A DNA stretch of 64,000 nucleotides from Endomicrobiales bacterium (GTDB taxonomy: Bacteria > Elusimicrobiota > Endomicrobiia > Endomicrobiales > CAWCFT01), in contig CAWCFT010000001.1 of NCBI GenBank assembly GCA_963794945.1, positions 288,001 to 352,000 of the forward strand, given 5' to 3'. The position numbers were made by a program, and so were the translations under genes. Shown in pieces: positions 24,556 through 59,785 of the stretch. Numbering within the stretch: position 1 is the stretch's first letter; each line of letters starts with the position of its first letter. The notes below the pieces were generated by a model. The model saw only the letters and a program-made list of their open reading frames with translations. It searched no databases and was not told where the DNA came from.

Positions 24556-24569
24556 CATATCCCGTTCTT

Positions 24570-24721
24570 ATCCCTGCGGTGTTGGTGAAGATTATCTGAT
24601 TTAAGCCGACAAGTTCCTTTTCGGGAGCGATAAAAGATCCGGCGGCATCGTGCCGCCAGTCTTCGCACCCACTTAATTAACTGGGACTTAAATCGATAGT
24701 CAGCACGGCACTCGCGGGGAT
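24570..24721 (+). ncRNA. ssrS: 6S RNA
   Basis: Canonical position after zapA; ends pair (ATCCCTGCG/CGCGGGGAT); 6S-like segments GGGAGC, CACCCAC and ACGGCAC; central hairpin GGCGGCA-tcg-TGCCGCC. Confidence 0.82.
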
Positions 24722-24730
24722 TTATTATAT

Positions 24731-42040: not shown

Positions 42041-43345
42041 ATGGAACACAAAATCGACCTCTCTTCTTTGCCTGACGCGCCGGGCGTCTATATAATGCGG
42101 GATTCTGCCGCAAAGATCATATACATCGGCAAAGCCATATCCCTCAAAAAAAGGGTCTCTTCGTACTTCAACAAATCGCCGGACATGAAAACGGTGGGGA
42201 TATTATCGTCCCTGCGGCACATAGACTTCGTGCTTTGCGCTTCCGAGCGGGACGCCCTTGTGTTCGAGCGGCTCCTTATCAATCAGCACAAACCTTTCTT
42301 TAACGCGATGTGGAAAGACGACAAATCTTACCCATACCTCAAGCTCACCCTAAAAGAAGATTTTCCAAGGCTGATACTCACCAGAAAAAAGTTAAATGAC
42401 GGCGGCGAATATTTCGGCCCGTACCCGCACGTCATACAGATCAAGAAACTTCAATTGTGGCTGTCAAGGATATTCAAGCTCAGGCTGTGCAAGATAGATA
42501 TTTATAAAAACAGCCTGCCGAAAGCTTCCAAAGTAAAGTCGTGCCTTTACCTGCACACTGGAAGATGCTCCGGGCCCTGCGTTGGCAGGATAAACGCGGA
42601 AGAATACGGAAAACTTATCAAAGAAGTAAGGCTTTTTCTGAAAGCAAGATACGTGCAGTTAAAAGAAGTTTGGGAAAAAGAAATGAGCGAAGCAAGCAAG
42701 GCCCTGCAATACGAAAAGGCGGCCGACATCCGCGACAGGCTTGGGGCTCTGGGCCAGATGCAGGAAAAGATCATAGTAAGGGAGATGAAAAGCGAGGACC
42801 TTGAACTTTCGCTCCAAAGCACGGACGCTCTAAAGGAACTAAAAGATGTATTGAAGCTTAAGTCGTGGCCCATAGTCATAGAGGGGTTCGATATATCAAA
42901 CATTTCAGGCACCCTCGCGGTTGGTTCAATGGTCAGTTTCCGCAACGCCCAGCCGGATAAATCTTCGTACAGAAAATACAAGATAAGAACGGTTGAAGGC
43001 TCGGATGATTTCGCGATGATAAGTGAAGTTGTTTACCGCAGGTATAAGAGGCTTTCCACTGAGAAAGCCGCGCTGCCTGACCTTGTGCTTATAGATGGAG
43101 GCAAAGGGCAGCTGGCGGCCGCGATGGAGGCTATGAAAAAACTCGGATTAAATAAAGTTCCTCTGGCGTCGCTTGCAAAGAGAAACGAAGAGATATTCCT
43201 GCCGCTGAACCCCAACCCGGTATTGCTTCCAAAAGGCTCACCTGCGCTTCATGTCCTGCAGCGCGTCCGCGATGAGGCGCACCGTTTCGCGCTTGCTTAC
43301 CACCATAACCGCAGGAAAAGCTTATTACTTTCAAATAAGAGATAG
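42041..43345 (+). CDS. uvrC: Excinuclease ABC subunit C (short form without the C-terminal HhH)
   Basis: PGVYIM...IYIGKAISLKKRVSSYF, UVR domain, IEGFDISN, LIDGGKGQL, RDEAHRFA. Confidence 0.93.
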   Translation: MEHKIDLSSLPDAPGVYIMRDSAAKIIYIGKAISLKKRVSSYFNKSPDMKTVGILSSLRHIDFVLCASERDALVFERLLINQHKPFFNAMWKDDKSYPYLKLTLKEDFPRLILTRKKLNDGGEYFGPYPHVIQIKKLQLWLSRIFKLRLCKIDIYKNSLPKASKVKSCLYLHTGRCSGPCVGRINAEEYGKLIKEVRLFLKARYVQLKEVWEKEMSEASKALQYEKAADIRDRLGALGQMQEKIIVREMKSEDLELSLQSTDALKELKDVLKLKSWPIVIEGFDISNISGTLAVGSMVSFRNAQPDKSSYRKYKIRTVEGSDDFAMISEVVYRRYKRLSTEKAALPDLVLIDGGKGQLAAAMEAMKKLGLNKVPLASLAKRNEEIFLPLNPNPVLLPKGSPALHVLQRVRDEAHRFALAYHHNRRKSLLLSNKR

Positions 43346-43368
43346 TTGAAAAAGCTATCAACTATCTT

Positions 43369-43476
43369 GATTACGGTGATTATCCGCCAATGGCGGACTT
43401 CGATTACAGTGATTGGAATCTTGATATCACCGTAATCTTCCATTCTTGTCGCTGTAATCAGTCCCGCCTTGGCGGG
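43369..43476. repeat. GATTAC-type inverted-repeat element without a cargo gene
   Basis: GATTACGGTGATT (43369), GATTACAGTGATT (43402), ATCACCGTAATC (43426), TCGCTGTAATC (43449), plus two CCGCC/GGCGG mini-palindromes. Confidence 0.75.
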
Positions 43477-43519: not shown

Positions 43520-43548
43520 TTGACATCAAAGTTCATCTGTGTTATAAT
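43520..43548 (+). promoter_or_regulatory. Consensus sigma70 promoter upstream of the FAS/PKS-like cluster
   Basis: Perfect TTGACA-17 nt-TATAAT with a TG extended -10. Confidence 0.82.
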
Positions 43549-43757
43549 TAGGCTCAAATGAGGGGCGTTACCTTTACAACACCAATTCCAGAGTTTTTTC
43601 CAACCAGGCTACACAGTGAAAGGCCCTCAGCCTTTTTCCATAATTATTTCAATTTTACTAAAAATATTGTTCAGTATTCACTTGTTATTATTAATAAGAA
43701 GTCTTTTTTCATTTAAATAGATCTTCATACTTGGGGCCGTGGTTCAAAAAGGGGAAA

Positions 43758-44976
43758 ATGCAAAAAAATCATATGTTGATCACCGGGATCGGTGTAGTAT
43801 CGCCCTGCGGCGCTAGGCAAAGATATTTTTTTTAACTGCCTTGAGTCCTCTAAAAACTTACTGGCAAAGCCCAAGAATATTTCGTATTCAGGAGCTGCAG
43901 GCGAAGTCAATGATAAAGCGGTTCTAAAGTATCTCGGCGAAAAAGGCGTGCGTAACCTTGACAGAAGCGCGCTGGTACTGCTGGCTGCTGTCGGTATGGC
44001 TATCAAAGAAGCAAAACTTGTGATAGACGCCTCGAATACCGACAGGATCGGTATAGCCACCGGTACAACGTTCTCTCACCTTCAGCCTATAGTAGATTTT
44101 GATAGAGAAGTATTCAAAGAAAGCATCAACTTCGCAAGCCCGGTATTGTTCCCTTCTACCGTTCTTAATGCCGCTTCCTCCCAGGCTTCCATCAGATACA
44201 ACATACAGGGTTTCAACACTACTATCAGCACGGGATTTACATCCAGCCTTGAAGCCGTAAAATACGCTATCAACAGCCTTGAAAACGGCCACGCGGACAT
44301 CGTATTTTCAGCGGGCCTTGAACCGCTTTCGCGGTCGTTATTGTTCGGCCTAAAGAAACTGAGATACATCGCGGGCATCAGCGGGCCGGATATTTCATGC
44401 CCGTTCGACGCGAGAAGGAACGGCCCTGTCCCGGCGGAGGGCGCTGGCGTGCTGTGTTTGGAAACTGAGAGCTCAGCCAAAAAAAGAAAGGTGAAACCTT
44501 ACGCGAAAATATTAAGCGTAGAGAGCTGTTTTGACCCGAGAGGAACAGCCAAGGTTTATCCTACAGGAGAAAGCATCGCCCAGGCCGTCATTAGCGCCAT
44601 AGGTGAAGCCGGGGTCAAGCCTGGAGACATTGATTACATCTCTTCCTGCGCGAATTCGACCCGGGACCTTGACCGCATAGAAGTTAAGGCCCTGAAAAAA
44701 GTGTTCGGCGCAAATGTAGGCAAAATACCCGTAAGCTCAATTAAATCCATGATAGGCGAGACCTTTTCCGCTTCCGGCGCCATGCAGATGATATCCTGCG
44801 TGGGCGCGATGGAACACGGCATCATCCCTCCCACGATCAATTACAAATTAAGCGATCCTCAATGCGATATAAACTGCGTACCAAACAAGCCCATTAAAAA
44901 GAAAGTGAACCTGGCGCTGGTAGTCTCTTCCGGGCCCGGCGGCTATAACAGCGCCTGCGTTATTGAAAAAGCATGA
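43758..44976 (+). CDS. Non-catalytic ketosynthase-like protein (chain-length-factor-like); frameshift near 43805
   Basis: MQKNHMLITGIGVVSP start; KS fold (PFDARRNG, AEGAG, IPPTIN); catalytic positions read STGFTSS, SSCANST and KSMIGET. Confidence 0.85.
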
Positions 44977-44980
44977 AAGC

Positions 44981-45060
44981 AATTGAAAATTGAAAAATTT
45001 AAGATTTAAAATTAGCGTCGTAAATATTTAATCTTAAATCTTTAATTTTAAATTCTCAAT
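44981..45060. repeat. Inverted array of short tandem repeats
   Basis: aattgaa aattgaa aaattta agattta ... aatcttaaat (reverse complement of atttaagatt) ... ttctcaat. Confidence 0.7.
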
Positions 45061-45081
45061 ATTAAATCAAAGGGTAATATC

Positions 45082-45816
45082 ATGAAAGAATTTAGAGGCA
45101 AAACGGTAATAATAACAGGCGGGTCGCGAGGCATTGGTAACGCGTGCGTTAAGGCGTTCTTCTCCGCGGGCGCGAACGTTGTTTTTACTTACAACAATAG
45201 CAAGGAAGAAGCCGGCAAACTTAAAAAACTAGGCAAAAGCGTTATAGCGGTAAAAGCTGATATCAAAGATTACGAACAATGCCGGTCAGTCGTGGGGGCT
45301 GCGCTGAAACATTTCAAGAAAGTAGACATTGTTATAAATAACGCAGGCAAAACTAACGACAAGGCTCTTGTTATGATGAAGAACGATGACTGGAAAGATG
45401 TCATAGACACAAACCTCGGCGGCACGTACAATATGACCAGGGCTATTATCACTACTTTCATGAAACAAAAAAGCGGCTGTATTATCAATATGAGTTCAGT
45501 AAGCGGTATAGTCGGGCTGCCGCGGCAGACCAATTACAGCGCATCTAAGGCCGGAATAATAGGTTTTACCAAAGCTTTGGCAAAGGAAGTCACCGCTTAC
45601 GGTATAAGGGTCAACGCGGTGTGCCCGGGCTATATAAGCACGGACATGATAAGCACGCTTAACGCCGAAATGATGAAGAACATAATAAATACCATACCGG
45701 TAAGGCGAATTGGCGAGCCGGAAGAGGTTGCTGAACTTTGCGTATATCTGGCATCGGATAAAGCAAAATATATAACCGGGGAATCGATAAAGATAGACGG
45801 CGGATTGGCTATATAG
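45082..45816 (+). CDS. fabG: 3-oxoacyl-ACP reductase (FabG-like ketoreductase)
   Basis: TGGSRGIG, NNAG, NYSASKAG, VNAVCPGYI. Confidence 0.9.
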   Translation: MKEFRGKTVIITGGSRGIGNACVKAFFSAGANVVFTYNNSKEEAGKLKKLGKSVIAVKADIKDYEQCRSVVGAALKHFKKVDIVINNAGKTNDKALVMMKNDDWKDVIDTNLGGTYNMTRAIITTFMKQKSGCIINMSSVSGIVGLPRQTNYSASKAGIIGFTKALAKEVTAYGIRVNAVCPGYISTDMISTLNAEMMKNIINTIPVRRIGEPEEVAELCVYLASDKAKYITGESIKIDGGLAI

Positions 45817-45817
45817 T

Positions 45818-45935
45818 AAACCCCGTTAGAGACAACGGGCATTTCGCGAATATAAAGATGGCAGCATTTCACCGCCATCTAACAGCATGGATTTAAACTG
45901 CCAGCGGGAGTCGGCGGCAGTTTCAAACTGGGTAA
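45818..45935. repeat. MITE-like structured intergenic element
   Basis: Imperfect terminal IR (ACCCCGTTAGA / TCAAACTGGGT) around hairpins AGATGGC..GCCATCT and AAACTGCC..GGCAGTTT. Confidence 0.4.
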
Positions 45936-45996
45936 AATAATATAATATTAACACTGGCTTAACAAGCAACTGATAAAATAGTTTACCGGAGGAAGT

Positions 45997-47325
45997 ATGG
46001 CATGCTTGGCCGTTATCTGTTTTTCATTGATGTTGATGTTATCATCAGTTGTCTCCTGCTGGTCAAAAGGTATTTTTATCCAGCCGGGCGCGAGGGATGG
46101 CGCGATGGGCTCCGCGATGACGGCGGTAGCTGATGAAGCCACCGCGGTATATTATAACCCGGCAGGCCTTGCCCAGCAAACAGGTTCAGAGGTTGAAGCG
46201 TCGTTATTCAGCCTGTCGGCCAACGCGACGAGCAACAAGTCCCTGGCCAACGCAGCCGCTCCAAATGTTATTAACGGAGACTTCCCGCTGCCGAACCTAT
46301 CTGCCATCCCAGGCGCTCTTCCGCCGATGCTTGCTAACTCAGAACCTACGGAATATCAAAGCAAACAATTCTCAACAAACGCAGAGATTCCGTTCATAGG
46401 GGCATACAAGAACGTTAACGGTGTAACTTACGCGTTGAGCGTTTATGGAATAGGCGGTGGAGGAGGAACATGGAGTGATTCAGTGCCGGCTTTAGGCGGC
46501 GCTGCCAAAATAACCGCCAGCCTTGCCGGTACTTATGCTTTCATGGTATACAATATTTCAGCCGCAACAAAATTAACTTCAAAGCTGATGCTGGGGCTAG
46601 GCATAGATATTGTCAATATGATCAACGAAACAAACGCTCAAAAATACTTTGATACCGCCGCGGGAAATTCCATTTACGGCATGGCTGTAAACCAGAGCGC
46701 GACAGGCTACGGAGTTCAGGTAAACGGCGGTTTGCTTTATAAATTCAACGAACAATGGAAAGCCGGGCTTGTTCTGCGCAGCGGCACGGACATTAAATTA
46801 AACGGGCAGGCGAACGGCTACGACAGCGTCAGCGGCCAGACTGATTATACTGATGACTACACATACCCTTTAACCGGGTCTGTTGGCGTGTCCTATGAGC
46901 CTAAAAATAATTTAACTTTAGCTTTGTCGGTTGACCAAACCCAGTATTCAGAGATGCATGAAACGATCAATTATAACAAGCAAATGCCTGGTGTGTTTGA
47001 CAATAGCGCCGGGCCGCTTGAAGGCAGGGATTGGAAAGATTCCACACAGTTTCATGTTGGCGCGGAATACCGCTGTGCCGATAAACTGGCTTTGAGGGCA
47101 GGTATTGAGAACGACCCCGCTCCGTTCTCTACTGATCAGTTAACGCTTACTGAGATAAACCAATATAATTTCATTTACTATTCGATAGGCGCCGGATACA
47201 AGATCGGGCAAGTGAACGTTGATCTATGTTACGCGTATTGCCCTTCGGATTCGCCTTCTATTGGCGACAGAAGTTATCAGTATAATTTGAACGTATTCAG
47301 GCTTGGGGCGAGCTACAGGTTCTAA
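45997..47325 (+). CDS. FadL/TodX-like outer membrane hydrophobic-compound transporter
   Basis: GARDGAMGSAMTAVADEATAVYYNPAGL hatch motif; beta-barrel ending in YRF. Confidence 0.85.
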   Translation: MACLAVICFSLMLMLSSVVSCWSKGIFIQPGARDGAMGSAMTAVADEATAVYYNPAGLAQQTGSEVEASLFSLSANATSNKSLANAAAPNVINGDFPLPNLSAIPGALPPMLANSEPTEYQSKQFSTNAEIPFIGAYKNVNGVTYALSVYGIGGGGGTWSDSVPALGGAAKITASLAGTYAFMVYNISAATKLTSKLMLGLGIDIVNMINETNAQKYFDTAAGNSIYGMAVNQSATGYGVQVNGGLLYKFNEQWKAGLVLRSGTDIKLNGQANGYDSVSGQTDYTDDYTYPLTGSVGVSYEPKNNLTLALSVDQTQYSEMHETINYNKQMPGVFDNSAGPLEGRDWKDSTQFHVGAEYRCADKLALRAGIENDPAPFSTDQLTLTEINQYNFIYYSIGAGYKIGQVNVDLCYAYCPSDSPSIGDRSYQYNLNVFRLGASYRF

Positions 47326-47387
47326 AATCTGAATAGTTCATCTCATTTAGGCGGAATTTGCACGTTAATTAACAAAGGGGGTAAATC

Positions 47388-47645
47388 GTGGCGAAGAAGT
47401 TAGACGCGGCAAGTATGATCAAGGAAGCGAAAAAACTGATATCTGAGATATCGGAGATACCAGCGGCTGACCTCAAAGACGGAGCAAAATTCACGGAAGA
47501 TCTCGGTGTGGACAGTATGAAAGCACTGGAAATTGTGGCTGCCATAGAAAAGAAATTCAAGGTTACTATACCTGAGGAGAAGATACCTACTATACGCTCT
47601 CCAAAGGATGTTTATGACCTTGTACAAAAACTCTTGAAATTATAA
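47388..47645 (+). CDS. Acyl carrier protein
   Basis: FTEDLGVDSMKALEIV phosphopantetheine site. Confidence 0.93.
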   Translation: MAKKLDAASMIKEAKKLISEISEIPAADLKDGAKFTEDLGVDSMKALEIVAAIEKKFKVTIPEEKIPTIRSPKDVYDLVQKLLKL

Positions 47646-47712
47646 CGTTATTCGATTAAAATATTCCTACGTTCAGCTTTATCCGGGTGGCTGTGGCAAA
47701 GAGGATAGTTTA

Positions 47713-48204
47713 ATGTCGGAAAACTGTGATAATATGGGCAGTGCCAATAAAGACGGCAATCAGGCTATTACGGGCCCGGTGTTTGACGTGCGGAAGATAC
47801 TGCCTCAGAAATACCCTTTCCTTTTCATAGATAAAGTTGTTCACGCCGATAAAGTAAAACAGCAGATCACCTGCCTTAAAAATATTTCAGGGAATGAAGG
47901 CTTTTTTCAGGGCCATTTCGCGGGAAACCCTATACTGCCCGGCGTAATAATAATAGAAGCTATGGCGCAGGCGAGCATACTTCTCTACGCGTGCGTAAAG
48001 CCCGCCAGCCTTGAGCGAAAGCCCGTATTTTTCCTTGGCAAAGTAGATGCCAGTTTCAAAAAACCCGTAATTCCCGGAGACATACTAATACTTCAGGCTA
48101 ACGCGGAAAAGATCATCGATACGGGCGGGATAGTGAAAGTAACCGCAAAAGTTGGTGAAAACACCGTAGCCGAAGCCACTTTACATTTTGGAGTAAAATT
48201 TTAA
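47713..48204 (+). CDS. 3-hydroxyacyl-ACP dehydratase (FabZ-like)
   Basis: LPQKYPFLFID and FFQGHFAGNPILPGVIIIEAMAQ. Confidence 0.92.
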   Translation: MSENCDNMGSANKDGNQAITGPVFDVRKILPQKYPFLFIDKVVHADKVKQQITCLKNISGNEGFFQGHFAGNPILPGVIIIEAMAQASILLYACVKPASLERKPVFFLGKVDASFKKPVIPGDILILQANAEKIIDTGGIVKVTAKVGENTVAEATLHFGVKF

Positions 48205-48208
48205 TATC

Positions 48209-49423
48209 ATGAAAAATACAAGGGTAGTGGTCACAGGGCTTGGGCTGGTAACATCGATAGGGATCGGCAAAGATGAATTCTGGAAGAATCTTACCGCGGG
48301 CATGTCTGGCATAAGTGAAGTCAAACAGTTCGATACCAAAAGGTTTAAACGCCATTTTGGCGGGGAGATACAACATTTTAACCCTGCCGAATACCTGCAT
48401 AGGAAGTCCGCAAACTACATAGGCAGGGCGTCACAGCTTGGGCTTACCGCGGCAAAACTGGCGTTAAAAGACGCCTCAATATCAGATAAAGCTATAAAGA
48501 ACCAGAAAACCGCGGTTATCGTAGGCGTTACTATACCTGAAAGCGGTTTGATCGACCAGTTTTCGGAGGAGATGTATTTTAAGAGGACAAAGAATATACA
48601 TAAAAGGTCCATACTGAATATCAACGCGCCTTCAATATCGAGGGATATCGGCCATTTCCTTGGCGCTAAACCGGTTAACATGCTTATCCCAAACGCCTGC
48701 GGAGCGGGTAATTTCTCCATAGCCTACGGTTACGACCTCATTAAGCAGGGCAAAGTGCAAACCGCCCTGGTTGGCGGGGCGGAGGCTTTTTCACGCGTGG
48801 CGTTCCAGGGGTTCCAAACCTTACGCGCGATGGCCGAGAATAAATGCTCTCCCTTTGACAAGAACAGGCAGGGAATGTTGTTGGGTGAAGGGGCAAGTAT
48901 ACTGATCCTGGAAGATTATGAATCTGCCATAGCCAGGAAAGCCCGTATTTATTGCGAGGTGCTTGGTTATGGTTACTCCTGCGACGCTCACAGCATGACT
49001 ATCCCTAAGAAGGAAGGCGTATTTAAGGCCATGAAAAAGGCCTTGGATAATTCCGGAATAAAGGCAGATGAGATCGATTATATAAGCGCTCATGGGACCG
49101 GCACCATCGCTAACGATAAAAATGAAACCGCCGCTATCAAGGATCTGTTCGGTGAAAGGTTCAGCAGAATGCCCATAAGTTCTATGAAATCGATGCTCGG
49201 CCACTCTATGGGCGCCGCTTCAGCCATAGAGGCAGCGTCATGCTGCCTGTCAATCGAAAAAAATGTTGCGCCTGCCACCATGAATTACACCACGCCTGAC
49301 CCGGATTGCGATATTGACTGCGTGCCTAATTTCGCCAGAAAAACAAAAGTTGATGCCGCCTTGAACAACGGTTTTGCCTTTGGCGGAAACAATTGCTGCG
49401 TGGTGTTCAAAAGGTGCGCTTAG
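48209..49423 (+). CDS. Beta-ketoacyl-ACP synthase (catalytic KS, FabF-like)
   Basis: Cys-His-His triad intact: PNACGAG, SAHGTGT, KSMLGHS; ends NGFAFGGNN. Confidence 0.93.
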   Translation: MKNTRVVVTGLGLVTSIGIGKDEFWKNLTAGMSGISEVKQFDTKRFKRHFGGEIQHFNPAEYLHRKSANYIGRASQLGLTAAKLALKDASISDKAIKNQKTAVIVGVTIPESGLIDQFSEEMYFKRTKNIHKRSILNINAPSISRDIGHFLGAKPVNMLIPNACGAGNFSIAYGYDLIKQGKVQTALVGGAEAFSRVAFQGFQTLRAMAENKCSPFDKNRQGMLLGEGASILILEDYESAIARKARIYCEVLGYGYSCDAHSMTIPKKEGVFKAMKKALDNSGIKADEIDYISAHGTGTIANDKNETAAIKDLFGERFSRMPISSMKSMLGHSMGAASAIEAASCCLSIEKNVAPATMNYTTPDPDCDIDCVPNFARKTKVDAALNNGFAFGGNNCCVVFKRCA

Positions 49424-49454
49424 TGGAAATGCCTGTAATTTAACACTTGATCAG

Positions 49455-49477
49455 AACCGCACACCGTGCGGTTTTTT
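49455..49477 (+). terminator. Intrinsic terminator after the KS gene
   Basis: ACCGCAC-acc-GTGCGGT followed by a T run. Confidence 0.75.
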
Positions 49478-49639
49478 GCTAAAATATTTGAAAATAGTGC
49501 TGAAACTCGATATTGCCACGTTAACATATTGAATTTACAATATAAACAGCGCGCATGGTGCCAGGTGCGGGGTGGTTGGTAAATGCCTTGAACCCGGCAC
49601 AAAGAACCTTGCACCAAGCAGGGCCATTGAGGAGGGACA

Positions 49640-50392
49640 ATGTTCAACTTGGAGAAGTATCCTGAGCAGTGGGTGGAGTTAAGCAGGATCGAAATTGAAG
49701 GCACGCAGTTCCAGTCAAGAGCAGCAAAGGACCAAAAAAAGATAAAGGCCCTGGCTGAGCAGATCAAGAAAGACAGCCTGCTGGAAGCTGCTATCCTTTA
49801 CGAATTCAACGACCGGTCAAGGCTAATGGCTATAATCAGCGGGCACAACAGGCTGCCGGCGCTGCAATTGCTCGGCTGGGACAAGGTGCGCTGCCGTGTG
49901 ATACCTGAATCGGAAATGGACCAGAAAACAGCGTTCCGGTTAAGCATAAAGGAAAACCTCAGCAACGATTCGCTTAAGAACAAAGACATAATATTTTCAG
50001 CAAAGAGAATGCGAGATGACGGAGCAACACAGGCGGAGATAGCGGAGTGTCTAGGCATAGCTGAGTCAACAGTAAGGAAATACCTTGCCGCGGCTGATTC
50101 GCCTAATGCCAAACAGGTAGCCGCAGGCGAGGAGTCAATAAATCACGCGCTTGACAATAAAAAAATGTATTTCAGGCCTCTCGGCGGCAAGGGTTTTAAC
50201 TACGCCATCAAGTTCAAGTCAAAAAGCGATGACCCGCAGGAACTGAAACATTTTCTTGATAAGACGGTTCCGGAACTTTATAAAATTGCAGGGGCCCTGC
50301 TTGACGCAAGAACGGTGCCTGCCTCTGTGCCTTCGACAGGCAAGCCCGACTCAGATAGAGGGGCGGAAAACGCCCCGGCGCCTGAACAATAA
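49640..50392 (+). CDS. ParB/Srx N-terminal domain protein with an HTH
   Basis: LAEQIKKDSLL...IISGHNRL...ENL; HTH TQAEIAECLGIAESTVRKYL; GAGGAGG RBS. Confidence 0.8.
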   Translation: MFNLEKYPEQWVELSRIEIEGTQFQSRAAKDQKKIKALAEQIKKDSLLEAAILYEFNDRSRLMAIISGHNRLPALQLLGWDKVRCRVIPESEMDQKTAFRLSIKENLSNDSLKNKDIIFSAKRMRDDGATQAEIAECLGIAESTVRKYLAAADSPNAKQVAAGEESINHALDNKKMYFRPLGGKGFNYAIKFKSKSDDPQELKHFLDKTVPELYKIAGALLDARTVPASVPSTGKPDSDRGAENAPAPEQ

Positions 50393-50437
50393 TGAACTCA
50401 ATTGCGTTTCAAGGTTCTTATATAGAGGTTTTCTAAT

Positions 50438-51865
50438 ATGTCTGAAAAATATGATGCGATCATTATAGGTTCTGGGATAGGAGGATTGGTATGCGGCTGT
50501 TATTTGGCTAAAGCCGGGCAGAAAGTCTTAATAGTTGAACAACATGATAAACCGGGCGGGTATTGCGGTTCTTTTAAAAGAAATGGCACCGTGTATGACA
50601 CCGGAGTGCACTATTTAGGCGGCATACGCAAAGGTATCTTAGGGACAATATTAAAAGAACTTGATATACTTGACCGCATGAAACTTCGTCAATTCGATAC
50701 GGCGGAGAAAATAGTTCTTCCAAATGTCACTTTCTATATAAAATCAAATATGGATGAGACGATACAAGGGCTTAAAACACTTTTTCCTAAAGAAAGTATC
50801 AATATCGATAGATTTTTTGAGCATATTCTCCAGCAGAGTTTTTACAGCATTTATAAAAATGCCGCAAATAGAAGTTTTAAAAACGTTTTAAGACATTTTT
50901 TTACAAATGAAGACCTGCTGTCAATATTTGACGCTATCTGTTTAATGAATAAAGGATTAAATGCTTCCCAGGTGTCAGCGATATCGACTATAATATTATT
51001 GCGGGATTATATTTCAAACCCGGGTTATTACCCGGTCGGCGGAATGTGCCAATTCCCGAATTTATTGGTCCAAAGATTTAAGGAATACGGCGGGACTATG
51101 ATATATTCTGAAAAAGTATCTAAGATAATTATCTCAAAAGAAATTAAAGTGAAAGGCGTTGAGGCCGCAAGTAATAAGTATTTATCCGATACGGTCATAT
51201 CTAACTGCGACGCTAAATACACTTTTCAGGAGTTAATTGATGTAAAAATCAAAGAAAAAAATAAAATTGATTCTTTAGTGCCTTCTGCTTCATTTTTTAC
51301 AGTATACTTACAAATAACAAAAGATAATTACTATAAATCACTAACGAAAGATTCTCATGCAATATCATACTTCTTCACTCAAAAACCATCGTATAATACA
51401 AAATATGAAATTGCTGATGGGCAAGAAATCAGGTATCTGAATTATGCTATCCCTGCTGAATACGACAATACTAGTAAAATGGGAATTAGAGTTATTACTT
51501 TAGCCAAGTATTACACACCTAAATTTTGGGATAGATATAAAGCTGCTTACGCACAAACGATTCTAAATAAGACAAAACAACTATTCCCGAAAATAGTCGA
51601 TAACGTAACAAATAAATTTATTGCTACACCTGTAACTTTTAATAAGTTTACACGTAACGATTGCGGTGCCGGGTTTGGATGGGCGCCTACGGTGAAGCAG
51701 GAAAGCACATCATTATGCCCTTCGAAGACCAGTATTAAAGGTCTTTATCTAAGCGGGCACTGGTCAACTACTGCGATAGCCAAAAGCGGGGCGCCTGTTG
51801 TTGCATTTTGCGGGATGAACACAGCAAAATCGGTTTTAGAACAGAAATTATCATTGAGAAATTAA
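50438..51865 (+). CDS. Phytoene desaturase-like FAD-dependent oxidoreductase
   Basis: YDAIIIGSGIGGL, VEQHDKPGGY, YPVGG, TPVTF, GLYLSGHW. Confidence 0.88.
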   Translation: MSEKYDAIIIGSGIGGLVCGCYLAKAGQKVLIVEQHDKPGGYCGSFKRNGTVYDTGVHYLGGIRKGILGTILKELDILDRMKLRQFDTAEKIVLPNVTFYIKSNMDETIQGLKTLFPKESINIDRFFEHILQQSFYSIYKNAANRSFKNVLRHFFTNEDLLSIFDAICLMNKGLNASQVSAISTIILLRDYISNPGYYPVGGMCQFPNLLVQRFKEYGGTMIYSEKVSKIIISKEIKVKGVEAASNKYLSDTVISNCDAKYTFQELIDVKIKEKNKIDSLVPSASFFTVYLQITKDNYYKSLTKDSHAISYFFTQKPSYNTKYEIADGQEIRYLNYAIPAEYDNTSKMGIRVITLAKYYTPKFWDRYKAAYAQTILNKTKQLFPKIVDNVTNKFIATPVTFNKFTRNDCGAGFGWAPTVKQESTSLCPSKTSIKGLYLSGHWSTTAIAKSGAPVVAFCGMNTAKSVLEQKLSLRN

Positions 51866-51925
51866 TCGTGAATTTAAAAAAGGCTTTAAGCGGCAGAAAC
51901 AAGAGTGGACGGAGAAATAAGATAT

Positions 51926-53011
51926 ATGAGTAAAAAAACTGTCTTCTTAACCGGGCCTACGGGTTTTGTAGGGTCATATCTTTTAAAGATATTTATCGAG
52001 AATGGATACAAAGTATATGCGCTCGCAAGAGATAAAAACGAACGGTCAGGCAAAGAAAGAGCGATAAATGCCGTAAGATTTTGGGATAAAAATACTGCAA
52101 AAAGAACAGGCGGCAATCTTGTTGTGCTTAATGGCGATATAATAAAGAATAACCTGGGCCTTTCAAATAATAATGTAAAGCAGTTGGTTGATGAAGTGGA
52201 AGAAATATATCATTGTGCGGCCAATACGGGTTTTAATCTGCCTATCAAAACTGCAAGGCTTGTAAATGTTAAAGGAACAGAAAATGTTTTGAAACTGGGG
52301 TACGCGTGCAGCAATAAAGGGAAATTGCAGAAGATCAATTATATAAGCACAATATACGTATGTGGCGACCATAAAGGTGTATTTGATGAAAATTGCCTTA
52401 ATGTAGGACAGCAGTTCAATACTACGTACGAAAAAAGTAAATATGAAGCTGAACTGCTTGTAGAGAAGTATAGGAAAATGGGGTTATGGATAAATGTATT
52501 CAGGCCGCCGATCATTATAGGTGAGTCAAAAACCGGGAAAGTGCCGGCATTTAATCAAGCCTTGTATCAAACATTGCATATTTGGGATTCAGAACTGCTT
52601 AAATATTTTCCGAATGATAATAAACTTCGTGCAAATATGGTTTGTGTTGATGAGCTCTGTGAAAGTATATTTAAGATCGCCGGCAATGTGTCTTTGAAGG
52701 ATAAAAATTACCATACTTTTCACATGAAAGGGGTCACTCCTGTTGAGCTTTTGAATATTTCACAAAAAATACTAAAATTCAAGAAACCTATAATAGTTAG
52801 TGAAATCGAGTTCGTGAAAAGATCTACCTCCGTGCAGAAGATGCTTTTAAAATACAATATATTATTTATTAATTCCAAGGTAAAACTGCGGTCTTTTAAA
52901 ACAAATGATGTTCTAAATAAACTTAATTTCAAATACTCGGTTATAGGCGAAAAATTATTGAATAGAATCGTATTATATTCAAAACGTGAGAAGTTCGGAA
53001 ATAATAATTAA
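51926..53011 (+). CDS. Extended SDR, thioester/fatty-acyl reductase-like (NAD_binding_4 type)
   Basis: TGPTGFVG, HCAA, NVKGT, YISTIYV, YEKSK, RPPIIIG. Confidence 0.85.
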   Translation: MSKKTVFLTGPTGFVGSYLLKIFIENGYKVYALARDKNERSGKERAINAVRFWDKNTAKRTGGNLVVLNGDIIKNNLGLSNNNVKQLVDEVEEIYHCAANTGFNLPIKTARLVNVKGTENVLKLGYACSNKGKLQKINYISTIYVCGDHKGVFDENCLNVGQQFNTTYEKSKYEAELLVEKYRKMGLWINVFRPPIIIGESKTGKVPAFNQALYQTLHIWDSELLKYFPNDNKLRANMVCVDELCESIFKIAGNVSLKDKNYHTFHMKGVTPVELLNISQKILKFKKPIIVSEIEFVKRSTSVQKMLLKYNILFINSKVKLRSFKTNDVLNKLNFKYSVIGEKLLNRIVLYSKREKFGNNN

Positions 53012-53026
53012 ACAGCCGGTCAAAAC

Positions 53027-55195
53027 ATGAATATGACTAAATTATATCCTATACCCACTTTTATTGTTTCTGCCATGCTGTTGTTTTTGGGCATATTTGT
53101 CTATAGGAACAGCAAACAACAGTATATCAATAAAGTGTTCATGGGATTGTGCTTTACTAGTAGTTGTTGGCTGCTATTCTTTTCAATTACATATACTGTT
53201 AGAAATGAATATATCGCGTTTATGCTAGAAAAAATCGGATATTGCGGTATCACGTTTATACCAATAACTGTATTTCATTATATAATTGAATTTTTAAATA
53301 TCAAGAGAATTAAAAGGTTTGCGCTTTATAACTATATTGTTGGTTTAATATTTGTCGTATTGATATGGACAACGCCATTTATTGTAGGAGGTGTAAAAAA
53401 CTATTTTTGGGGCTATTATCCTGTGGCGGGAATTTTGCATCCGCTGTTCCTTGCGTATTTTATTTTTATTGGTGTTATATTATCATCTTTGTTTTTATTG
53501 TTCAAATATTATTATAGACAAAAGCAGCTTACATATTTAAAGAAAGAGCAGATCAAATATGTGATCTTGGCTTTTTTTATATATTATTTTGCCGCGGCAG
53601 ACTTTTTTCCAAACTATGGGATTTCAATTTATCCATTTGGATACTTGCCAACATTATTCTTTATCATCATTATCAGTTATACTATTGTCAGATTCAGGTT
53701 AATGGATGTAAATGTCGCTATTACCCGCGCTGGAATATTTCTAGTGCTTTATTCATTGGTCCTTGGCATCCCTTTTTTAATAGGGCACTATACAGAATCC
53801 TGGATATTATCAACGATATTCGCTGTTATTCTTGCATCAATAGGCCCTCTGGTATACCGTTCGATACAGCGGAAAGCTGAAGACCTGCTGCTCGCCGAGC
53901 AGAGGCGCTACCAGAAAATATTAGTGCAAGCCGCTAGCGGAATGGCCGGCGAGCATAATCTTGAACGGCTGCTTAAATTGATCGTGAGGGTTGTGAAAAA
54001 AGCCGTTAAAATGGAATACACCGCTATATTCCTTGAAGATAGAGAGAAAGAAGCATATATATTGAGGGCCATTCGCACCGATACTAATATACCGATAGAT
54101 ATATCGTTTGGGTTCAAAGACCCTCTTATAGAGTTCATGAAGAAACACAAGGAACCATTCCTTTTTGAAGAGATACCTGAATTTATCAAAGGGACGCTAA
54201 ACTTTCCTCTGAATATTTCACTAATAGTACCTTCATTTTTTGATGAAAGCTCAATAGGCTTTTTAGTATTGGGAGAAAAAAATAATAAGAAGGCTTACTC
54301 GACTGATGATATCAACGTTTTTAAGATATTATCCAGACGAACATCGATGTCTATAGAGAACTGTATTTTCGTTGAGGAATTCAAGAAAGCTCAGGAAAGG
54401 GTGTTCGCGGCGGAGAAACTTGCTTCTATCGGCGGCCTCGCGGAAGGAGTGGCCCACCAGATCAACAACCGGTTAAACCACTTCTCTATGGTTTCGGGAG
54501 AACTTAAATATGAAGTTGACAGCTATTTGTCGGCCCATGCAGAAGCGATAGTTCAAAATCCGGACCTGAAGAAGACGTTTGATTATTTTATCAAGATATC
54601 AAACTCACTGCTGTCGAACGTTAAGAGAACGGACGGCATCTTGAAGGGGATACTTAACTTTGCCAGAGTAGAAGCCAAAGAAACCTTGTTCTCGAACTTT
54701 TTCCTGCAGGAAGTTGTCGATCTGGCGATCGACCTACTCAGGGTCAAACATAGCGTACAGGAATTTCCAATCAAGGTGAACAAATTGTCATCCGATGTAA
54801 TATATGGGGTTAAGTCACAGATCATGGAATCCGTATATAATCTTATCGACAACGCTTACGAGGCAACACTTGATAAAGCAAACACGCTTAACCCAGGTGA
54901 TGCCGCGTTGTATAAACCCAACATAGAAATATCTATTTCTCAAAATCCTGAAAAGACGGTTATTCAATTCACCGACAACGGCATCGGCATAAAAAGCACC
55001 GACAGGCACAAAATATTCGCTCCTTTTTTTACTACTAAATCATCTTCAAAATCCGGCACAGGTATCGGCATGTATGTGGTCAGAAGGATGATAGAAGAGA
55101 ATCACAAAGGCAAGATATGGTTCGAATCCGAGTACGGCAAAGGCACAAAAATAACTATCGAACTGCCTAAGAAGTATACTTCTGGCAGTAACTAG
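53027..55195 (+). CDS. Membrane sensor histidine kinase (HisKA_7TM-like N-terminus, GAF, HisKA, HATPase)
   Basis: About 9 TM segments, GAF, EKLASIGGLAEGVAHQINN H-box, NLIDNA, DNGIGI, PFFTTK, GTGIGM. Confidence 0.93.
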   Translation: MNMTKLYPIPTFIVSAMLLFLGIFVYRNSKQQYINKVFMGLCFTSSCWLLFFSITYTVRNEYIAFMLEKIGYCGITFIPITVFHYIIEFLNIKRIKRFALYNYIVGLIFVVLIWTTPFIVGGVKNYFWGYYPVAGILHPLFLAYFIFIGVILSSLFLLFKYYYRQKQLTYLKKEQIKYVILAFFIYYFAAADFFPNYGISIYPFGYLPTLFFIIIISYTIVRFRLMDVNVAITRAGIFLVLYSLVLGIPFLIGHYTESWILSTIFAVILASIGPLVYRSIQRKAEDLLLAEQRRYQKILVQAASGMAGEHNLERLLKLIVRVVKKAVKMEYTAIFLEDREKEAYILRAIRTDTNIPIDISFGFKDPLIEFMKKHKEPFLFEEIPEFIKGTLNFPLNISLIVPSFFDESSIGFLVLGEKNNKKAYSTDDINVFKILSRRTSMSIENCIFVEEFKKAQERVFAAEKLASIGGLAEGVAHQINNRLNHFSMVSGELKYEVDSYLSAHAEAIVQNPDLKKTFDYFIKISNSLLSNVKRTDGILKGILNFARVEAKETLFSNFFLQEVVDLAIDLLRVKHSVQEFPIKVNKLSSDVIYGVKSQIMESVYNLIDNAYEATLDKANTLNPGDAALYKPNIEISISQNPEKTVIQFTDNGIGIKSTDRHKIFAPFFTTKSSSKSGTGIGMYVVRRMIEENHKGKIWFESEYGKGTKITIELPKKYTSGSN

Positions 55196-55198
55196 GGG

Positions 55199-55582
55199 TT
55201 GGCCATGGCTGAGAACAAGCATATACTGTTAGTCGACGACGAAGAAGAGATAGTCGTCTTTATGGCTAACTTTTTAAAGCGTTTCAAGATCGCGAGCACC
55301 AAGGCTACTTCAGGCGAAGAAGCAATTAGAGTTTACGATCCAAAGAGTATGGGGTTTGTTTTTCTTGACCTTCACCTTAAAACAATGGATGGTTTTTCTG
55401 TGCTGAACATATTAAAAGAAAAGAATCCGGATGTTAAAGTTATAATTATAGCGGGCAGTCCCGACAAGGTGTCGATAGAAAAAGCATACGGCCTTGGCGC
55501 GGTAGATTACATTACAAAACCGCTAGACTTAAGCGAGTTTAAAAAGAAAATAGATAAATACATCCTCAAAGAGGGTGAATGA
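55199..55582 (+). CDS. Single-domain response regulator
   Basis: ILLVDDE, FLDLHL (phospho-acceptor Asp), GAVDYITKP. Confidence 0.93.
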   Translation: MAMAENKHILLVDDEEEIVVFMANFLKRFKIASTKATSGEEAIRVYDPKSMGFVFLDLHLKTMDGFSVLNILKEKNPDVKVIIIAGSPDKVSIEKAYGLGAVDYITKPLDLSEFKKKIDKYILKEGE

Positions 55583-55689
55583 TTACGGAGATTAAACATA
55601 AACAAATTGATTACAACGATTTTAATCATAATTAAGGTATAATCCAGATCATTGTAATAGTGCAGTAGTAACAAATAATCGTTTTAATC
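55581..55689. repeat. Left GATTAC-type repeat arm of the GxxExxY cassette
   Basis: GATTACGGAGATT (55581), GATTACAACGATT (55609), AATCGTTTTAATC (55677). Confidence 0.7.
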
Positions 55690-55711
55690 TCGTATCTACA
55701 GGATATAAACG

Positions 55712-56110
55712 ATGTTAAAAGAAAAAGATAGCTTGACCGAACAAATTATAGGGAGTTGTTTTAAGGTACACAAAAAACTGGGGCCCGGCTATAATGAAAA
55801 GATATACCAAAATGCATTGAAATTGCAATTAGAGTGTGATGGTTTGATCTGTGAGTGCGAAAAAGAATATAAAGTTAATTATCTTGATAAATTTGTAGGT
55901 ACTTTGAGAATTGATCTCATTATTGAGAAGAGAGTGATTGTAGAAATCAAGGCAATCTCGACTTTTGTTCCTAAAGTATTTGAGAATCAGGTGATTTCTT
56001 ATTTGAAATCGTCGCAACTTGATGTTGGATTGTTGGTAAATTTTGGAAATAACAGTTGTCAAATCAGACGTCTAATGAAATCGCATAATTCGCATTGTAA
56101 ATCGTTGTAA
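55712..56110 (+). CDS. GxxExxY protein (PD-(D/E)XK nuclease-like)
   Basis: LGPGYNEKIY, RIDLIIE..VIVEIKA, QVISYLK, GLLVNFG. Confidence 0.93.
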   Translation: MLKEKDSLTEQIIGSCFKVHKKLGPGYNEKIYQNALKLQLECDGLICECEKEYKVNYLDKFVGTLRIDLIIEKRVIVEIKAISTFVPKVFENQVISYLKSSQLDVGLLVNFGNNSCQIRRLMKSHNSHCKSL

Positions 56111-56135
56111 TCGTTGTTAGTAATCGCTGTAATCA
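56100..56135. repeat. Right GATTAC-type repeat arm of the GxxExxY cassette
   Basis: AATCGTTGTAATC (56100-56112, exact reverse complement of 55609-55621) and AATCGCTGTAATC (56122-56134). Confidence 0.75.
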
Positions 56136-56156
56136 ATTTATCCATAGGATAATTAA

Positions 56157-57437
56157 ATGAAAAAATACTACCATAAAGACCTTGAAAAAGCAGCACGGCA
56201 GATGATACTTGTTCGCAAGGTAGATACCCTTGCTAAACTTATCGTGCGCACTATAATCAGGAATATACATGTAAGGCACGCGGGGATCTTTCTTTTTGAC
56301 AAAACAAAAAATGAATACATAGTCAAAGTGTCGAAAGGAAAATTAGGCATAAAGATCCCAGTAGGTTTTACTAAAGTAAAGAGCGATAATGCAATAATCA
56401 GGTTCTTTACGGATAAGACCGTAGGAAAATACTTCAAACAAGACTTCCTTCTGTACAATAAAATTAATTACCGCTTCAAATGTAAAACACATTCGGAAGA
56501 TAAAAATCTTCAAGATTTCCTTAAGAAATTGAAAAGCGAGTTCTCTTTATACCAGGCTAAAGCTTTTATCCCGGGATTTTATACGAACAATCTGGTTGGC
56601 GTGTTATTCCTTGGCGCAAAGGATGATAACAGCAGTTTTAAGGCTGATGAACTTGGATTTTTGTTTGTTCTTGCTTCGGATGTGGTAATGGCTATTCAGA
56701 ACGCCTGGCTTTTCGAAGACCTCAACAGCCAGCTCGATATCAACAAGAAATTATTTTTAAGCACTGTTACGGCACTGGCAACAGCTATAGAAGCAAAGGA
56801 TAAGTATACGCTAGGGCACACCGAGCGGGTAGTAAAATATTCAACTGCCATAGCCAGGAACTTGCCAGGGATAACCATACCCAACAACAAGGATTTTGAG
56901 GAAAATCTTAAGATCGCGGCTTTATTGCATGACATAGGAAAGATAGGTATATCAGAAAACTTGCTCAACAAGAGCGATGCCTTGTCACCGAAAGAAATAA
57001 AGGCCATTAATGAGCATCCTTTGATGGGTGTGGAGATACTTAACCCTATCAGCGAGTTCAAGGATGTTCTGCTGGGTGTAAAATATCATCACGAGAGATA
57101 TGACGGCAAAGGCTATCCTTTCGGGCTTAAAGGCGATCAGATACCTTTAGCCGCGGCAATTATTGCCGTAGCCGACGCTTACGACGCCATGACAAGCGAC
57201 AGGCCGTACAGAAAAGCATTAAGTGACGCTGAAGCGTGCAATCAGATACTGCTCAACCGCGAGAAGCAGTTTAACCCCGTTGTAGTTGATGCGTTCTTAA
57301 AGGTTTATAAGAATAAGGATGTAATTGAGGATAGTATCGGCAGTGCCGAAACAGTATCTGCGAAGACTAAAGAAAAAAATGCCTCCAATAGTTCCGAACT
57401 GAACCCGGTACAGGACCTCTCCGTTAGAGCCAATTAA
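56157..57437 (+). CDS. GAF plus HD-GYP cyclic dinucleotide phosphodiesterase
   Basis: AIEAKDKYTLGHTERV, LLHDIGKI, HHERYDGKGYP, ADAYDAMTSDRPYR. Confidence 0.95.
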   Translation: MKKYYHKDLEKAARQMILVRKVDTLAKLIVRTIIRNIHVRHAGIFLFDKTKNEYIVKVSKGKLGIKIPVGFTKVKSDNAIIRFFTDKTVGKYFKQDFLLYNKINYRFKCKTHSEDKNLQDFLKKLKSEFSLYQAKAFIPGFYTNNLVGVLFLGAKDDNSSFKADELGFLFVLASDVVMAIQNAWLFEDLNSQLDINKKLFLSTVTALATAIEAKDKYTLGHTERVVKYSTAIARNLPGITIPNNKDFEENLKIAALLHDIGKIGISENLLNKSDALSPKEIKAINEHPLMGVEILNPISEFKDVLLGVKYHHERYDGKGYPFGLKGDQIPLAAAIIAVADAYDAMTSDRPYRKALSDAEACNQILLNREKQFNPVVVDAFLKVYKNKDVIEDSIGSAETVSAKTKEKNASNSSELNPVQDLSVRAN

Positions 57438-59200: not shown

Positions 59201-59785
59201 ATGGAAAATAACAACCTTACAAAAGGCGCCAGAGTCGCCGGGACTATTGTTTACGGCGTAGTGCAGGTAATAATACAAACATATGGCCTGGAAGGCTATA
59301 TTAATGTGCTCAAGAGAATGACGCCTGAACACAAGAGCTTGCTGGAGTCAACCCACAGCGCGAGCCGCAGTTTTACGAGCGAATTTACGCGTGACTATTT
59401 GGATGCAATAACAAGGGCTCTGCCGTCAAAAAGTTCACAGTCTGTTATCACCGAAATTGTGCGCGAGCTGGCGCACAACCATCTTAGCACAGTGATGACA
59501 ATATTTTTGAAATTAGGAACGCCTCATTTCATACTTCAGCGTTTTCCGAACATCTGGAGATTGTTTTTCACTCACGGAACTATGGTCGTCGAAAATGAAT
59601 TTGAGAAGTCCGCTGACGTTATGCTTTTGGACAATATTGACTATGGAGAAGGCGTTTGCATGGGATCCTTAGGCTGGATGCAGGGGGCTATGGAAAAATC
59701 CGGCGCAAAAGATGTAATTGTCATACATCCGAAATGTATATTCCGCGGGGACACTAAGTGTATATTCAAGTTTGCATGGAGTTAG
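59201..59785 (+). CDS. Standalone V4R/H-NOX-like ligand-binding protein
   Basis: C-terminal C...GWMQG...CIFRGDTKCIFKFAW V4R-like pattern. Confidence 0.6.
   Translation: MENNNLTKGARVAGTIVYGVVQVIIQTYGLEGYINVLKRMTPEHKSLLESTHSASRSFTSEFTRDYLDAITRALPSKSSQSVITEIVRELAHNHLSTVMTIFLKLGTPHFILQRFPNIWRLFFTHGTMVVENEFEKSADVMLLDNIDYGEGVCMGSLGWMQGAMEKSGAKDVIVIHPKCIFRGDTKCIFKFAWS

Follow-up and report, generated by a model that had tools for sequence, protein, structure and literature searches.

A candidate lipid-signal locus with an exchangeable cassette and kinase sensor in an Endomicrobiales bacterium

Why should a dedicated set of genes for building an acyl chain stand directly before the gene for a membrane histidine kinase? 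The question is raised by a locus in a 64,000-nt stretch of the genome of an Endomicrobiales bacterium (assembly GCA_963794945.1; 2.9 Mb, 86% complete), positions 288001-352000 of contig CAWCFT010000001.1 (C1 below), which we refer to as the window. A preliminary description of the locus, which spans window positions 43520 to 57437, had proposed that it makes an unsaturated fatty aldehyde- or alcohol-like signal and detects that signal itself, feeding into cyclic di-GMP (c-di-GMP) without LuxI or RpfF. All the genes that it listed are present where it placed them, co-oriented on the forward (+) strand, and the 15-nt spacing between the last enzyme gene and the kinase gene is confirmed. Here we argue that the locus rather probably produces a lipid signal and detects it as well, the specificity being set by a cassette that can be swapped.

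The synthesis genes and the kinase keep company well beyond this genome. The active-type ketosynthase (KS) of the locus (48209..49423) is intact, retains Cys164, His295 and His332, and belongs to a kinase-coupled clade related to the KS of anammox 'ladderane' clusters. This clade is found in four of 301 genomes of the phylum of the window and in 62 of 301 Omnitrophota genomes, where it occupies 65 places. A kinase with seven transmembrane helices (7TM) lies downstream within 6.6 kb at 48 of these places and upstream at two, which are rearranged; it is absent from 10, at each of which at least 10 kb was read, and five are truncated and unjudgeable, so that 50 of the 60 assessable loci carry the kinase. 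In the 48 loci the gap between the kinase and the preceding gene ranges from -47 to +58 nt. Because the present genome holds two such kinases in 2.9 Mb, linkage within 6.6 kb at 48 of 65 places is far beyond chance. (A survey that scored a maximum of three candidates per genome gave at least 107 of 301 and was not used for this statistic.) An HD-GYP gene is present in at least 32 of the 50 kinase-coupled loci within 20-kb windows. The kinase-coupled KS group together in the KS tree, in a single subclade (64 rows, SH-aLRT 82, one kinase-less member) that requires two state changes; the sister group of this subclade is a kinase-less Omnitrophota clade, and the anammox KS fall outside both. The four KS from the order of the window do not group as one clade (p-AU 7e-9), which points to transfer. 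The core of the preliminary description was that a dedicated acyl pathway, lacking RpfF, has a membrane kinase of its own and acts through an HD-GYP protein. This co-occurrence supports it, and stronger support comes from the allelic swapping and the co-variation of sensor and enzyme described below.

The slot before the kinase is where the relatives differ. Here it holds two genes, encoding a CrtI/CrtISO-like FAD oxidoreductase (50438..51865; GC content at third codon positions (GC3) low at 0.33) and a short-chain dehydrogenase/reductase (SDR) of the NAD_binding_4 thioester reductase (FAR/R-domain) type (51905..53011; NAD_binding_4 1e-50, MxaA R domain 1e-22, GC3 0.34), presumed from its family to release the chain reductively. 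Elsewhere the slot is filled by interchangeable acyl-chemistry genes: NAD_binding_4 reductases, AAR-like reductases (TIGR04058 6.6e-41, below cut-off; PDB 6jzq 1e-28), a LuxD-methyltransferase fusion, a third KS or KS-III, a nitroreductase, a GMC oxidoreductase, ICMT, AOS-type and class III aminotransferases dependent on pyridoxal 5'-phosphate (PLP), and a PhcB-like methyltransferase family. The last of these is labelled from JGI protein names: its profile matches proteins named 3-hydroxypalmitate methyl ester (PhcB) synthase (two so named among 24 matches, best 6.8e-89), and it gave weak matches only in the PDB and generic methyltransferase names only in plasmid and Atlas searches. For the AOS-type enzymes, serine palmitoyltransferase/BioF models score above the CqsA model (NF005526), all below cut-off. 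The association also holds in the reverse direction. At 36 kinase places picked by score to the window kinase and lying away from this KS (30 in KS-negative and six in KS-positive genomes), the gene directly upstream belongs, in our judgement, to acyl or lipid chemistry in 33; two have an unknown gene there and one a housekeeping gene.

Three alleles occupy one chromosomal site: that of the window, L001 from a second genome (G006) and L185 from a metagenome contig. The latter two share the downstream context of the window (receiver, HD-GYP, SLT, lplA, secA), and in the cassette slot L001 has a PhcB-like gene and L185 a different SDR. Between the window and L185, identity is 66-77% in the flanking genes and 78% in the kinase core, as against 34% in the SDR and 27% in the sensor; it climbs at about residue 200-240 of the kinase, which marks the exchange breakpoint. 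The three kinase cores form one clade (support 91), and a single clade for the three sensors is rejected by the approximately unbiased (AU) test (p=5e-58). Across 41 loci, GC3 is 0.42 for the KS, 0.31 for the last cassette gene, 0.32 for the sensor and 0.50 for the kinase; in 39 of these loci the sensor value is the lower of the last two. Comparison of the genomes shows that the genes for release have been exchanged together with the part of the kinase gene that encodes the sensor, as one unit between conserved flanks. By analogy, such a unit would give rise to specificity groups like the agr pherotypes. The pherotype loci comQXP of Bacillus are a further parallel.

The sensor follows the chemistry of the cassette more closely than the rest of the kinase does. 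The kinase in question (53027..55195; HisKA_7TM-GAF-HisKA-HATPase) has its 7TM sensor at residues 1 to about 215 (to about nt 53670), followed by two further transmembrane helices. From 94 full-length kinases we removed 19 of mixed or no class and three that were truncated, duplicate or uncertain, and kept 72. With six chemistry classes fixed a priori, the classes change 25 times on the sensor tree (residues 1-215), 33 times on that of the middle part and 35 times on the kinase tree, compared with about 42 for free shuffles. With four classes, from a merge made after the first tree (SDR with AAR, MT33 with LuxD-methyltransferase), the counts are 12 for the sensor and 22 for both the middle part and the kinase core. 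When labels were shuffled within kinase clades, the sensor value was never reached in 2000 tries at three thresholds (p=0.0005). A five-class scheme that keeps nitroreductase cassettes separate gave 16 vs 30 changes; having been defined after the tree, it is not relied on. In 28 classifiable new loci, two duplicates included, the nearest sensor predicts the class in 23 and the nearest kinase in 12. A control on 62 KS-centred loci gave 11 changes for the sensor, 18-19 for the KS and 19 for the kinase, against a null of about 23.7; simple linkage is therefore insufficient as an explanation, since the equally adjacent KS barely tracks chemistry.

The sensor clade of the window illustrates the pattern. 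It has 22 members (SH-aLRT 100) with an invariant Asp192, whose cassettes are nine SDR, 11 AAR and two PhcB-like, and the non-homologous SDR and AAR reductases are therefore common to one clade; the methyltransferase sensor clade has Asn at position 192 and an invariant Arg69. Within classes, enzyme and sensor show significant co-phylogeny for AAR (p=0.008) and for the PhcB-like family (p=0.001). In family f10 of the order of the window, we also observed an aldehyde-dehydrogenase-family gene next to 7TM kinases with sensors in the reductase (Asp192) clade (L265-L269, L276, L280, L284); the encoded enzyme may make or remove an aldehyde signal.

Structure prediction assigns the sensor a fold that resembles G-protein-coupled receptors (GPCRs). 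The model (predicted local distance difference test score (pLDDT) 94) has seven helices and two linker helices, and the 50 entries listed by VIA-align are all GPCRs or GPCR-like designs (best 8jmt, Z 16.4, root-mean-square deviation 4.1, 218 aligned), with the caveat that helical bundles score high generally and that a fold shows no function. Foldseek gave no match for the model at E<=0.001, the best hits, at 4e-3, being GPCRs, and the sensor sequence has no relative among PDB sequences. The combination of a polyene aldehyde and a 7TM protein brings to mind a rhodopsin-like photoreceptor, a possibility that we rejected: TM7 has no Lys, and only 55% of the reductase clade carry one at position 69.

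Downstream of the kinase lie a single-domain receiver (55199..55582; Asp57 and Lys107 invariant) and a GAF-HD-GYP phosphodiesterase (56157..57437) that has no receiver domain of its own, keeps its HD-GYP motifs and metal ligands intact and matches the solved GAF-HD-GYP structure 4mcw (1e-30 over GAF and HD-GYP). In our models the lone receiver docks on the GAF domain of the HD-GYP protein (interaction prediction score from aligned errors (ipSAE) 0.70, best control 0.00; runs agree to at least 91%, partner pLDDT at least 84), with contacts that include the invariant receiver positions 21 and 107-111; the modelled interface pairs receiver residues 107-112 with GAF residues 71-75. Of 157 solved pairs 116 attain the mark used, as do 2 of 215 mismatched ones; this calibration is rough with the alignments used here, and a pass may reflect similarity to solved complexes. 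This genome encodes GGDEF and PilZ genes. At or next to the kinase of four relatives (L145, L146, L147, L283), PilZ is fused to radical SAM, PhcB-like methyltransferase or HMG-CoA-reductase-family enzymes, which suggests that c-di-GMP controls signal synthesis there. An Rfam search of the locus returned no match and hence no support for riboswitch feedback.

The genes upstream of the cassette suggest what the kinase would sense. In addition to the active KS there are a chain-length-factor (CLF)-like KS (43758..44976) in which the catalytic Cys and both His are replaced, a FabG-like ketoreductase (KR; 45082..45816; TIGR01830 5.8e-86, below cut-off), a dedicated acyl carrier protein (ACP; 47388..47645; PP-binding 1.5e-11) and a FabZ-like dehydratase (DH; 47713..48204; from domain matches). 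An active KS, a catalytically dead CLF, KR, DH and ACP without an enoyl reductase are the gene set of a highly reducing type II polyketide synthase (PKS). The preliminary description was right that this is not the housekeeping fatty acid synthesis (FAS) locus: a fabH-fabD-fabG-acpP-fabF operon sits elsewhere (C1:444-448 kb). The frame of the CLF-like gene is open from 43948, its true start is at 43758 and a frameshift lies near 43805; L001 has an intact orthologue of 410 aa, whose alignment starts at 43810 with 56% identity. Because leuS and secA (window 35475-37947 and 60427-63061) and fabG (C1 446 kb) are likewise split by frameshifts, indel errors seem to be numerous in this assembly, and the frameshift in the CLF-like gene is probably one of them.

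We propose a scheme in four steps, the first two of them read from the gene families. KS/CLF, KR and DH would extend an acyl chain on the dedicated ACP and, with no enoyl reductase, leave it as an unsaturated or polyene acyl-ACP. The CrtI-like flavoprotein would then adjust the double bonds and the NAD_binding_4 reductase free the chain as a long-chain, presumably polyunsaturated, aldehyde or alcohol, with a FadL-type channel aiding its passage across the outer membrane. The GPCR-fold domain of the adjacent kinase would recognise the class of compound, as the observed co-variation suggests. Finally, the kinase would set the phosphorylation of the lone receiver, which in the model docks on the GAF domain of the HD-GYP protein, and the latter would shift the level of a cyclic dinucleotide, most likely c-di-GMP.

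Several observations weigh against a signal that is made and sensed in this way. The FadL gene is indeed present here (FadL/TodX family, 45997..47325; Toluene_X 2e-27), as in L001, and yet it is an optional component, found in 1 of 50 kinase-coupled KS loci and in 12 of the 36 kinase-centred loci. The co-variation has exceptions, with the PhcB-like L123 and L142 in the reductase clade and the SDR loci L185 and L098 in the KS-type clade; within classes, SDR (p=0.11) and extra-KS (p=0.33) cassettes show no significant co-phylogeny with their sensors; the trees were built in quick mode with no mixture model, and related loci are not independent of one another. L185 does not share the GC dip. The frameshift in the CLF-like gene may mean that this copy of the cluster is broken. 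Nor do all kinases have a synthesis gene beside them. The family occurs in 45 of 104 genomes of the order of the window, and no enzyme gene directly precedes 8 of the 20 kinases inspected there. Of these eight, four stand between uvrC and its downstream genes, three of the four before lplA, and two belong to loci that read kinase-receiver-HD-GYP-lplA with no synthesis genes at all. The paralogue in the present genome, on contig C16 (35457-37593), is likewise an orphan; it follows ribokinase/MTAP-like genes both here and in G006 (L270), and its sensor falls on a long branch in the methyltransferase clade.

The same data also fit a kinase that senses the product within its own membrane, and this is the substance of the main rival explanation, which we hold to be unlikely: the product would be a structural or protective envelope lipid (a polyene alcohol, a wax or ether precursor, or a pigment), and the 7TM kinase an intramembrane feedback sensor that adjusts c-di-GMP, with no signalling between cells. 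The closest KS relatives outside the clade belong to anammox clusters proposed to make structural lipids, and the flavoprotein too is related to those clusters; FadL is mostly missing, and co-variation of sensor and chemistry would be expected here as well. Thirteen Omnitrophota loci have their KS, cassette and kinase within the plsX-fabH-fabD operon, directly after plsX-fabH(-fabD), at the usual place of fabG-acpP-fabF (L097, L102, L105, L108, L112, L120, L127, L128, L138, L141, L144, L171, L172). An envelope lipid accords less well with the repeated swaps of end chemistry at one site, which bring in non-homologous one-step off-loading enzymes (PhcB-like, LuxD, AOS, AAR) and resemble signal diversification more than a supply of membrane, or with the many loci that consist only of FadL or a single synthase and the kinase. 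The kinase-less sister clade is instructive in this respect. Its members (L092, L106, L126, L130-L132, L136, L137) have this KS/CLF core too, but next to a gene for an alpha/beta hydrolase, a GNAT or a PagL-like protein, and would represent a separate lipid pathway; the partners there differ (hydrolase, GNAT, PagL, radical SAM), and an SDR or HD-GYP gene is found in 0 of 10.

A second alternative, in which the product serves as a cue for contact or kin recognition, or as an antagonistic lipid, and is read by the sensor to tell self from non-self and by orphan kinases to eavesdrop on other lineages, strikes us as quite improbable. The allelic diversity at one site and the extra and orphan 7TM kinases beside many loci would suit it, but the loci examined have no conserved genes for immunity, export or toxins, and by sequence such a cue is indistinguishable from quorum sensing. 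Least probable by our estimate, and only barely credible, is that adjacency alone accounts for the joint transfer of the tailoring genes and the first half of the kinase gene, while the kinase senses something unrelated: shared low GC3 (co-transfer), the existence of orphan kinases and the weak co-phylogeny within SDR are in its favour, but the KS flank, just as close, fails to follow chemistry; enzymes that are non-homologous yet chemically alike go with one sensor clade; and of the 36 loci that lack this KS, 33 have an enzyme gene right beside the kinase gene.

Two genes within the locus are passengers. A ParB-HTH gene (49640..50392), which the preliminary description had counted as part of the system, is found in none of the 50 kinase-coupled loci, and we rejected it as a cluster regulator, its paralogues being dispersed in unrelated contexts. 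It belongs to a family specific to this genome, with eight further tblastn matches (27-38% identity) on contigs C2, C6, C15, C16, C17 and C19 that sit singly in unrelated neighbourhoods with no common flanking DNA, and which is possibly a dispersed selfish or regulatory family. The second, a GxxExxY/PDDEXK_3 (PD-(D/E)XK) gene between the receiver and the HD-GYP gene (55712..56110), was not on the original list and was rejected as a component, being present in 2 of 50 loci; it is flanked by one copy of a short intergenic repeat (window 43345-43460 and 56095-56135) that recurs on C1, C2, C4, C11 and C16 with about 70-86% identity. At 43520..43548 (+) there is a candidate operon promoter (sigma-70 consensus TTGACA-17-TATAAT with extended -10, 12/12 match), which counts as a consensus match only, the scan having returned 61 sites vs 35 in shuffles. 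Elsewhere in the window are a 6S RNA (24568-24724, +), a DDE transposase with DUF4372 (22663-23829, -) and a 194-aa protein (59201-59785) with a weak V4R match (E 0.002), which might be of the type that binds small hydrophobic ligands and which neither L001 nor L185 shows at the corresponding place. A third KS with a KR stands beside biotin synthase (C4:426322-429552), possibly as a dedicated route to a biotin precursor.

Returning to a lipid signal made and sensed by the locus, we would give about even chances to a wider claim: that Omnitrophota and Endomicrobiales harbour a widespread, undescribed lipid-signalling family in which GPCR-fold 7TM kinases read fatty aldehydes or alcohols, esters, amines or ketones, the cassette recombines together with the sensor to give chemical pherotypes, and a free receiver passes the signal to c-di-GMP, with feedback through PilZ-fused synthases. 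If so, this would be the first fatty aldehyde or alcohol autoinducer from a dedicated type II PKS, and many 'ladderane' clusters of non-anammox bacteria would acquire a testable function. It would suggest a communication system in two poorly cultured lineages and offer candidate ligands for the HisKA_7TM sensors, which are predicted here to have a fold that matches that of GPCRs. The more than 100 matched enzyme-sensor pairs would amount to a natural library that opens a direct way to the ligands: the class of ligand for a receptor could be read from the cassette beside it, and for orphan receptors from their sensor clade.

How does such a system relate to those already known? Our literature search, whose coverage did not extend to most subscription papers, found no paper describing it, and there is no description of it in the accessible parts of PMC12419801 and PMC13641062. 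No LuxI is encoded in the locus, and the genome search matched none, although its positive control matched nowhere either. Some relatives recall Vibrio CqsA/CqsS in having an AOS-type PLP enzyme before the kinase; in contrast to Cqs and Lqs, this locus has no PLP-dependent synthase of the CqsA type. The synthesis genes are closest to the 'ladderane' FASII clusters of anammox bacteria, proposed, in the portion of the source available, to make polyunsaturated or ladderane lipids (PMC2649909), while those of Omnitrophota are reported as of unknown function in the accessible part of a preprint (10.1101/2022.12.20.521206). KS, CLF-like gene, ACP, FabZ and phytoene-desaturase-like gene are shared, and the anammox KS are 46-47% identical and form an outgroup. 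Unlike those clusters, however, the present one lacks B12 radical-SAM genes (present in L010-L012 and L014) and has a release reductase and kinase-receiver-HD-GYP genes, which four of four anammox loci lack within 10 kb.

The nearest functional parallels come from fatty-acid-type signalling. The preliminary description pointed to the diffusible signal factor (DSF) system as an analogy; in our assessment phcB-phcS-phcR combined with an agr-type hypervariable region is closer. In the Rpf/DSF system of Xanthomonas, as far as the accessible text of PMC13220807 describes it, a fatty-acid-type signal acts through the membrane kinase RpfC and the HD-GYP protein RpfG, which lowers c-di-GMP. A kinase-linked HD-GYP output with intact motifs is common to both. 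The part of the preliminary claim that does without RpfF holds up: there is no crotonase in the locus, and PF00378 was not found in the 86%-complete genome (control matched 13/14). The kinase, unlike the hybrid RpfC, also lacks a receiver domain, and a separate receiver is modelled on the GAF-HD-GYP protein, whereas RpfG is a receiver-HD-GYP fusion. In the Ralstonia phcBSRQ system (3-hydroxypalmitic and 3-hydroxymyristic acid methyl esters, 3-OH-PAME/MAME), the same partly available source places the gene for the acyl-signal synthase directly upstream of those for the sensor kinase and receiver (PMC13220807). Here, too, a synthase-type gene abuts the kinase and the receiver follows, and relatives, L001 at the same site among them, carry a PhcB-like methyltransferase in the cassette slot. 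The locus itself differs from Phc in that it has no PhcB: chain building is assigned to a KS/CLF pathway of its own that includes a reductase, the sensor is of the HisKA_7TM-GAF type, the output is an HD-GYP protein and the cassette is interchangeable.

For that interchangeability the likeness is to agr of Staphylococcus, in which, according to the part of PMC10482373 at hand, the hypervariable region extends over the genes that make the signal and into the one for the sensor kinase; the hypervariable region here covers the cassette genes and the sensor half of the kinase. Unlike in agr, the chemistry is of lipids and not of a peptide, entire enzymes without homology replace one another, a phosphodiesterase takes the place of a DNA-binding regulator as the output, and there is no AgrB or AgrD. 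The locus is accordingly a member of none of the Rpf/DSF, Phc, Cqs or ladderane groups; by analogy, it would work in the manner of Phc and Rpf, with specificity groups of the agr kind.

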